Source: Anolis carolinensis
Taxonomy: Eukaryota
Direction: 5' to 3'
Assembly: GCF_035594765.1 (NCBI RefSeq)
Contig: NC_085843.1
Coordinates: 195,463,971 to 195,527,970, forward strand
DNA: 64,000 nucleotides
Position numbers and translations under genes: made by a program. Shown here piece after piece: positions 157 through 570 of the stretch; within the stretch, counting starts at the first letter, position 1, and each line of letters begins with the position of its first letter. Under the pieces are notes generated by a model. That model made no database searches, was not told where the DNA came from, and saw nothing but the letters and a program-made list of their open reading frames with translations.

Positions 157-570
157 TTACAAATCCTCATCACTGTCAGCTGTCCTCCTTAACCCGGGCG
201 TTTCCTCATCACTTTCCTCATCAGAGCTGGAACACCTCTGACTACGCCCCACAGCATCTCCAGCTGTGGATCCCGTCCCATCCCTCCAGCTAAGCCATGG
301 GTCTAATCCTGAAAGTCCCCATTCATCTTCTATCCCATCATGACCAGTGGCACCCAATTCCTCCCTTACCCGAGTCCAATCCATCTCATCCTCCTCCGAG
401 CTAACCAGCCCCTCCTCCATTCTCTCCGTAAACCCCTCAAAAGACTCTTCGTCAGATGGTGCTGCAAAAATGTCTCGCAGTCTTTTTCTTTCTCGCTCCT
501 CGAGAGTATCTGACTCTCGAGGAGTCTTACGCCCACGTCTGTCAGTAACAGAGCCATGAGGCTCAATCAT
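157..570 (-). CDS. 137-aa acidic ORF inside the putative LTR, with bipartite NLS-like segment and FxGF (IBM/TIM-like) motif
   Basis: Intact ATG-to-TAA frame. RRGRK...RKRLR followed by DIFAAPSDEESFEGF. Several S-x-x-E/D acidic clusters. Expression unproven. Confidence 0.55.
   Translation of the reverse strand: MIEPHGSVTDRRGRKTPRESDTLEERERKRLRDIFAAPSDEESFEGFTERMEEGLVSSEEDEMDWTRVREELGATGHDGIEDEWGLSGLDPWLSWRDGTGSTAGDAVGRSQRCSSSDEESDEETPGLRRTADSDEDL

Follow-up and report, generated by a model that had tools for sequence, protein, structure and literature searches.

Locus and element

The stretch analyzed here, called the window in the following, comprises 64,000 nucleotides of Anolis carolinensis DNA (contig NC_085843.1, positions 195,463,971 to 195,527,970) and begins inside a long terminal repeat (LTR) of a Ty3/Gypsy retrotransposon. 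This LTR carries on the minus strand a 137-codon open reading frame (ORF; 157..570) with a motif resembling the host ligands of the chromatin protein LEDGF—most likely the C-terminal tail of the integrase in full-length copies and an orphan copy of that tail here. Window positions 1–574 hold the initial 574 bases of a solo LTR of subfamily A, which is 1,143 bp long and has TG...CA ends; its other 569 bases lie outside the window. The segment covers the unique 3′ region (U3) and the start of the repeat region (R) on the minus strand (1..574) and is 99.5% identical to the LTR of the full-length copy L032. It is bordered by a 5-bp target-site duplication, CTAGA (575..579, minus strand), which is the same at the other LTR end, and no second LTR occurs within 9 kb of the window copy (locus L031). 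The LTR origin given in a preliminary description of this DNA is thereby confirmed.

A first look at the genome yielded 1,672 candidates for the window stretch; the 40 that were scored are 99–100% identical, and many of them come in pairs approximately 5.2 kb apart. The full-length copy L032 features LTRs that are 99.8% identical, an ORF for gag, and, after it, a pol frame of 1,214 codons with the domain order protease, reverse transcriptase, RNase H, integrase, and SH3 (SH3_Tf2-1), and without a Chromo match at E ≤ 1. The element is a young and abundant Ty3/Gypsy LTR retrotransposon of the Tf1/Sushi group and, lacking the chromodomain, a derivative and not a chromovirus in the strict sense. 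Its integrase falls inside a reptile-rich clade with a support of 83/82 in a tree of 22 rows and was placed next to two long-branched rows from plants or algae in a faster tree of 51 rows, no named Sushi reference being among the rows of either tree.

Five bases past the stop codon of the ORF lies a TATA-like box, CATAAAA (146..152, minus strand), a putative promoter element. At the predicted 5′ end of R (110..120, minus strand), an 11-base segment is a perfect complement of the primer-binding site in the full-length copies, a site that does not carry TGG. Tf1/Sushi elements are described, in passages of PMC6317226, as using a self-priming arrangement instead of a tRNA primer-binding site. Self-priming of this type is predicted for the window element from the 11-base complementarity. 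The overlap of gag and pol holds a GGGAAAA site, at which the frameshift site of PEG10 serves as the basis for predicting a −1 frameshift.

The open reading frame as part of Pol

In 9/9 full-length copies, picked as LTR pairs among the most similar matches, the pol frame continues unbroken across the polypurine tract, enters the 3′ LTR, and ends at the stop of the 137-residue frame; upstream of the tail, it is open for 1,072–1,152 codons. The ORF is intact across the family, in line with the preliminary description. The same fusion of tail and integrase is present in the database proteins P0001, P0005, and P0006, and the assignment of the tail to Pol is regarded as nearly certain. A chromodomain (PF00385) occupies the place of the tail in 96 of 117 non-family integrase relatives, as read by the author from the Pfam column for the best 120 listed, of which three belong to the element's own family. 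The residues just before the polypurine tract resemble, by eye, the chromodomain start of a sister family in the same genome, which bears a chromodomain and also reads into its LTR via a similar junction. Given this likeness and the chromodomain of the relatives at the same place, loss of the chromodomain is the simplest history of the tail-bearing element. Since the stop of the tail lies five bases before the TATA-like box, the tail fills the front of U3; transcripts would include it solely at the 3′ end of genomic RNA, and its copy in the 5′ LTR would stay outside the LTR transcript.

The preliminary description had taken the ORF for a small separate protein. Such a 137-residue accessory protein would start at an ATG within the LTR and be made from spliced or read-through RNA, like the products of retroviral U3 ORFs. 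An ATG at LTR base 5 with an intact frame is indeed present in solo and 5′ LTRs of subfamily A and of a second subfamily, B, and the host gene models P0002, P0004, P0007, and P0008 splice into the frame. The intact frames of solo LTRs follow, however, from LTR copying and youth, the frame is the in-frame end of pol in every full-length copy and lies upstream of the predicted promoter, and no ATG stands at the LTR start in any of the 24 copies of an older subfamily, C, in which the start is visible (30 examined). The ORF probably does not encode a small protein of its own, and an accessory product of this kind is considered very improbable. Among the joints listed for contigs of four public sequencing runs that cover the element, there is no clear splice joint into the tail, a result with no bearing on expression.

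Searches of Pfam with the 137-residue ORF gave no match, and searches of the ESM Atlas with residues 15–75 no usable one. A profile of SH3 plus tail, compared with 1.84 billion representatives, retrieved no tail beyond Anolis-type proteins among its best 150 matches.

Several public gene models, among them glucosidase II alpha, an OGFRL1 isoform, a vomeronasal receptor, and fragments of long interspersed elements, are chimeric with, or cluster with, pieces of these elements (P0008, P0395, P0002, P0004, P0007, and P0322) and are annotation artefacts or cases of exonisation. In LTRs of subfamily B (L072, L073, and L075), the minus strand also features an antisense open frame of 205 codons that spans the tail region and is probably a by-product.

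Anatomy of the tail and its likeness to host ligands

All features of the tail lie on the minus strand. A basic patch, RRGRK (residues 11–15; 526..540), may, judged from sequence only, be one half of a nuclear localisation signal. It is followed by a predicted helix (residues 22–35; 466..507) ending in a hydrophobic anchor, I34–F35, which aligns with JPO2 motif 1 in the chain 6emo_A and is kept in subfamilies B and C. An 8-residue acidic linker, AAPSDEES (442..465), then leads to the FxGF core, F44-E45-G46-F47 (430..441). The linker equals that of lizard CDCA7L motif 1 in spacing and carries S/T-x-x-D/E sites, among them a site of the casein kinase 2 (CK2) type at S39. Further downstream, DWTRVREEL (residues 64–72; 355..381) is what is left of the last motif repeat; subfamily C still has the FxGF half of that repeat, which is gone here. 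Residues 11–47 read, from 540 to 430, as they had been given in the preliminary description, and the numbering of F35, F44, G46, and F47 was right.

The motif that binds the integrase-binding domain (IBD) of LEDGF has the consensus [D/E]xExFxGF. It is one kind of TND-interacting motif (TIM)—TND standing for the TFIIS N-terminal domain—for which passages of PMC9987994 give a helix with F, V, L, or I as anchor, an acidic linker of 8–16 residues, and an optional FxGF. The same passages describe TIMs as binding many TNDs, FxGF as special to the recognition of LEDGF and HRP2, and CK2 as raising motif affinity. The tail has the FxGF core after an 8-residue acidic linker and, at the end of a predicted helix, the anchor residues in place. 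When the residues of the ORF are shuffled 200,000 times, the pattern [DE]x[DE]xFxGF arises in 0.034% of cases, and among the 127,996 six-frame residues of the window it occurs once, as the ORF motif itself; the pattern was picked after the motif had been seen, so that the figures flatter it.

Lizard CDCA7L motif 1 shares 10/15 core residues with the tail at equal spacing. The preliminary description had considered capture of CDCA7L sequence. Third codon positions of the core agree with CDCA7L at 5/15 (A) and 7/15 (B), with little similarity downstream, and a recent capture at the DNA level is not seen. Since A and B agree with each other at just as few third positions (5/15), the sequences would fit an old capture as well as convergence. 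The CDCA7L N-terminus as given in the preliminary description matches the 6emo_A chain around the motif; its METLSSEES extension finds no convincing match in lizard CDCA7L.

The host genome holds PSIP1-like and HDGFL2-like exons as well as the motifs of CDCA7L and CDCA7. Lizard CDCA7L features two FxGF motifs in separate exons, and lizard CDCA7 one FxGF motif of the CDCA7L type (L104, plus strand near 2221; L105, plus strand near 8441; L110, minus strand near 8024). Locus L076 (G000:C2:143718346-143718648) is a processed pseudogene, a PSIP1/LEDGF-like copy that lacks introns and has one stop within the IBD.

Selection and subfamilies

Between subfamilies A and B, residues 29–47 carry 11.5 changes at 13.0 synonymous sites (proportion of synonymous differences, pS, 0.88) and 6.5 changes at 44.0 nonsynonymous sites (pN 0.15), whereas the whole tail has a pS of 0.42 and a pN of 0.20 (Fisher p 5e-5). 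A second copy pair agrees, and residues 1–17 and 76–137 show no significant excess of synonymous change. The helix–acidic–FxGF stretch is under purifying selection between the subfamilies; the JPO2-like motif is conserved at the protein level, in line with the preliminary description. Insertions and deletions in the tail keep the frame, and the noncoding LTR has many of them. Codon comparison of A and C is saturated and gives no usable counts.

Subfamily B has 10,571 candidates, a count shared with related families; its 150 scored matches are 97–100% identical to their own query, and its tail is 62–64% identical with helix, linker, and FxGF kept. Subfamily C, found by chance near CDCA7L, is older, with 1,165 candidates and copies 83–92% identical to the query. 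Its tail features three tandem repeats of the helix–linker–FxGF unit; of 30 decaying copies, 23, 23, and 25 keep FxGF intact in the respective repeats. The SH3 region and the tail share one frame in 2/3 subfamily C junction copies, the third being frameshifted just before the junction; no chromodomain is present in any of the three, nor in A or B. The loci L119 and L143 were considered as the internal region of subfamily C and rejected as belonging to an unrelated Gypsy neighbor. In these loci (L119:4-260, minus strand of the locus, and L143), a Gypsy integrase frame ends soon after the GPY/F region without a chromodomain or a tail.

Motifs in other Gypsy integrases

Two further integrases feature F-x8/9-FxGF motifs in an acidic context behind a chromodomain-like segment: P0058 of Podarcis muralis with one motif and P0388, whose integrase is close to a Podarcis protein, with two. 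They are the only such cases among the 117 non-family proteins of the best 120 listed and 148 of the best 150 profile matches, and they form a clade of their own apart from A, B, and C. One and two origins of the motif both fit the data, a single origin not being rejected in the approximately unbiased test (p 0.079). A genome search with the chromodomain–motif stretch of P0058 returned ordinary chromodomain families only. In many Gypsy elements of reptiles, Pol extends into the LTR and ends in an acidic tail that lacks FxGF, and FxGF is absent from all 20 loci read of Sushi-type chromodomain families in the Anolis genome. One sister chromodomain Gypsy (L088, L093, P0033, and P0035) has in its tail DEEENLGF, a stretch that is acidic and ends in GF without the first F of FxGF.

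Predicted binding to LEDGF

A complex of tail residues 18–60 with residues 401–486 of lizard LEDGF (the IBD) was predicted with a score of 0.35 versus 0.01 for the best control, which gives weak support. The partner pLDDT is at least 52, at least 50% of contacts recur between runs, and alignments were not used. In the benchmark, the mark is reached by 51/78 solved pairs and 2/108 mismatched pairs, and passes at a score of 0.60 or under comprise only 5/78 solved pairs but all 4 passing mismatches (of 180). The benchmark does not cover peptides, a like complex is already solved, so that the pass may be memory, and passing does not single out the family member that binds. The prediction thus speaks, weakly, for likeness and not for binding. 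Engagement of LEDGF or HRP2, proposed in the preliminary description, is the likely function, and binding of the tail to a TND of the LEDGF/HRP2 type appears probable.

Several results weigh against a tail that tethers the integrase through LEDGF. The sole match in the Protein Data Bank up to E 10 (177,635 sequences) is 6emo_A, a fusion of the LEDGF IBD with JPO2 motif 1, at query residues 29–48 with an E of 1.6. This match speaks for the motif but is weak and not significant on its own; the same search with the tails of subfamilies B and C did not return the JPO2 chain. The tail itself is seen only in Anolis-named or near-identical proteins. The pN of the motif is only modestly below that of its flanks (0.18–0.26), the contrast coming mostly from pS. 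Guidance by LEDGF might lead copies to favor transcribed DNA rich in genes. When the flanking 10 kb were compared among 40 sites bearing the motif, 40 bearing a chromodomain, and 20 chosen at random, there was no difference in repeats, GC, CpG, or strand skew (p 0.20–1.0 for motif-bearing versus chromodomain-bearing), and orientation is unbiased (21/40). Insertions outside the six largest contigs amount to 14/150 for subfamily B and 8/78 for chromodomain families, with 15.3% expected by length, and hence show no pull toward small chromosomes. The flank and contig proxies are crude and of low power, and selection removes genic insertions after the event; as they stand, they give no sign of the gene-body targeting envisaged in the preliminary description.

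That the motif is no TND ligand at all—an acidic, disordered extension kept for solubility, nuclear import, or particle assembly, with a coincidental likeness to JPO2—would agree with the shortness of the motif in an acidic tail, with the E value of the 6emo_A match, with a complex score barely at the mark, and with the acidic FxGF-less tails of other reptile Pols. However, it is the whole helix–linker–FxGF unit that was triplicated in subfamily C, that is conserved while synonymous sites saturate, and that recurs with equal spacing in a second integrase clade. A mere acidic extension is thus judged quite unlikely.

Alternatively, the tail could bind a TND for other ends: to hold on to mitotic chromatin, to stabilize the integrase, to recruit elongation factors (IWS1, TFIIS, Elongin A, and PNUTS) to the new insertion, or, as a cleaved fragment, to keep the LTR active. 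The lack of a targeting difference in the flanks is in line with this, as are the many TNDs bound by TIMs (passages of PMC9987994), a complex prediction that cannot single out a family member, and the chromodomain-like segment that P0058 and P0388 keep beside their motifs. Against it stand the location of the motif at the end of the integrase, where a known targeting domain would otherwise sit, as in the tails of Ty1, Ty5, murine leukemia virus (MLV), and CRM elements, and the description, in the same passages, of FxGF as mattering mainly for LEDGF and HRP2. Binding for such other ends is rated unlikely, though less so than a motif without any ligand.

Proposed mechanism

The account preferred here, with modest confidence, is that the ORF is the integrase tail of a chromodomain-less Tf1/Sushi Gypsy element, whose motif is likely a TIM predicted for the IBD of LEDGF or HRP2 and would tether the integrase to H3K36me2/3 chromatin. 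That the tail serves chromatin tethering at integration is, taken by itself, somewhat probable. Fusion to pol, chromodomain loss, and selection on the motif are observed; the steps beyond them are proposed as follows. Pol would be produced by the −1 frameshift at the gag–pol overlap, and the tail would remain on the mature integrase, with the basic patch aiding nuclear entry. CK2 would phosphorylate the acidic linker and raise its affinity, as in the host motifs, whereupon the helix and FxGF would dock in two pockets of the IBD of LEDGF or HRP2. The PWWP domains of LEDGF or HRP2 would hold the complex on H3K36me2/3 nucleosomes, that is, on transcribed chromatin, and insertions would be steered toward active genes. 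Of the two roles raised in the preliminary description, target-site selection leads because the motif sits in an integrase context, and transactivation ranks below it. More tentatively, and with doubt prevailing, reptile Gypsy elements may have moved from chromodomain reading of heterochromatin marks to a hijack of LEDGF/HRP2 via one to three phospho-regulated mimic motifs on the integrase, possibly twice, with P0058 and P0388 as an intermediate state.

Comparison with known systems

Tethering by an integrase tail is of a known kind; the TIM-type tail is well supported as anatomy and selection and predicted as binding and targeting. The closest layout is that of the CRM group A plant chromoviruses, in which a CR motif in the 3′ LTR stands in place of the chromodomain (passages of PMC3059260). 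Those passages connect the CR motif with centromeres and name no partner for it, whereas the tail described here belongs to a vertebrate lineage of the Tf1/Sushi group and resembles a ligand that the host provides for readers of H3K36me in euchromatin. In MLV, a flexible C-terminal integrase tail binds the extra-terminal domain of host BET proteins and sets site preference (passages of PMC8149907), much like the role proposed here. MLV differs in being a retrovirus that uses an acetyl-lysine reader and is directed to promoters and enhancers. Its integrase tail does not lie within the LTR. Ty1 and Ty5 are copia-type elements of yeast. Short C-terminal motifs of their integrases bind a host tether, AC40 and Sir4, respectively, that of Ty5 in a phosphorylation-dependent manner (passages of PMC9673352); these partners differ from that of the window element.

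Lentiviral integrase shares the proposed tether (LEDGF/p75) and domain (IBD) with the window element. However, HIV integrase presents a pre-folded dimer cleft to the IBD and involves D366 of LEDGF, whereas cellular partners use an unstructured motif (passages of PMC6382798 and PMC10854676); the mode of the window element would be the cellular one. Host TIMs such as JPO2/CDCA7L motif 1 feature the helix, 8-residue acidic linker, and FxGF as in the tail but belong to host genes and not to an active mobile element. PogZ is a transposase-derived host partner of LEDGF (title of a reference in PMC3185499). Its origin is a DNA transposon. Sushi-type chromoviruses of the same genome (P0033, L084, and L088) share the gag–pol layout and the SH3/GPY-F region, and P0033 and L088 read into the LTR similarly; these families keep the chromodomain and have no FxGF in the 20 loci read.

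In passages of a TND review, the section on viral mimicry names lentiviral integrases only (PMC9987994). No prior description of a retrotransposon integrase with such a motif was found in full-text literature consisting mostly of open-access papers, repeat databases being outside the scope of this search. Only a handful of elements have a known integration tether, and use of LEDGF among integrases is described, in the source passages, as lentivirus-specific. If the tethering account holds, a nonlentiviral element would have reached the tether of HIV by copying a cellular binding mode—a convergence on one chromatin anchor by a different interface. The family would then offer a natural switch of targeting, from a chromodomain to a short motif, that can be compared within one genome with sister families still alive. 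It would also add natural ligands, some of them tandem, to those known for TNDs, and would allow the influence of target choice on the final distribution of LTR elements in reptile genomes to be tested directly.

Further observations

A variant of subfamily A has an LTR that is short by approximately 86 bases (LTR positions 540–625), downstream of the tail frame (L002, L010, L012, L018, L027, L028, and L029). Another copy features a 228-bp tandem duplication within pol (L035:2923-3375), through which the frame stays open, with 1,152 codons before the tail. Three chromodomain-Gypsy matches with identical scores stand in tandem at G000:C5:22987708-22998631 with a spacing of approximately 5.37 kb, and the listing for one chromovirus Pol, P0065, includes a dUTPase domain (PF00692). 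Elsewhere, the window holds many dispersed elements resembling short interspersed elements, short inverted-repeat elements, and microsatellites (e.g., 869–1135, 1639–1966, and 6223–6551).
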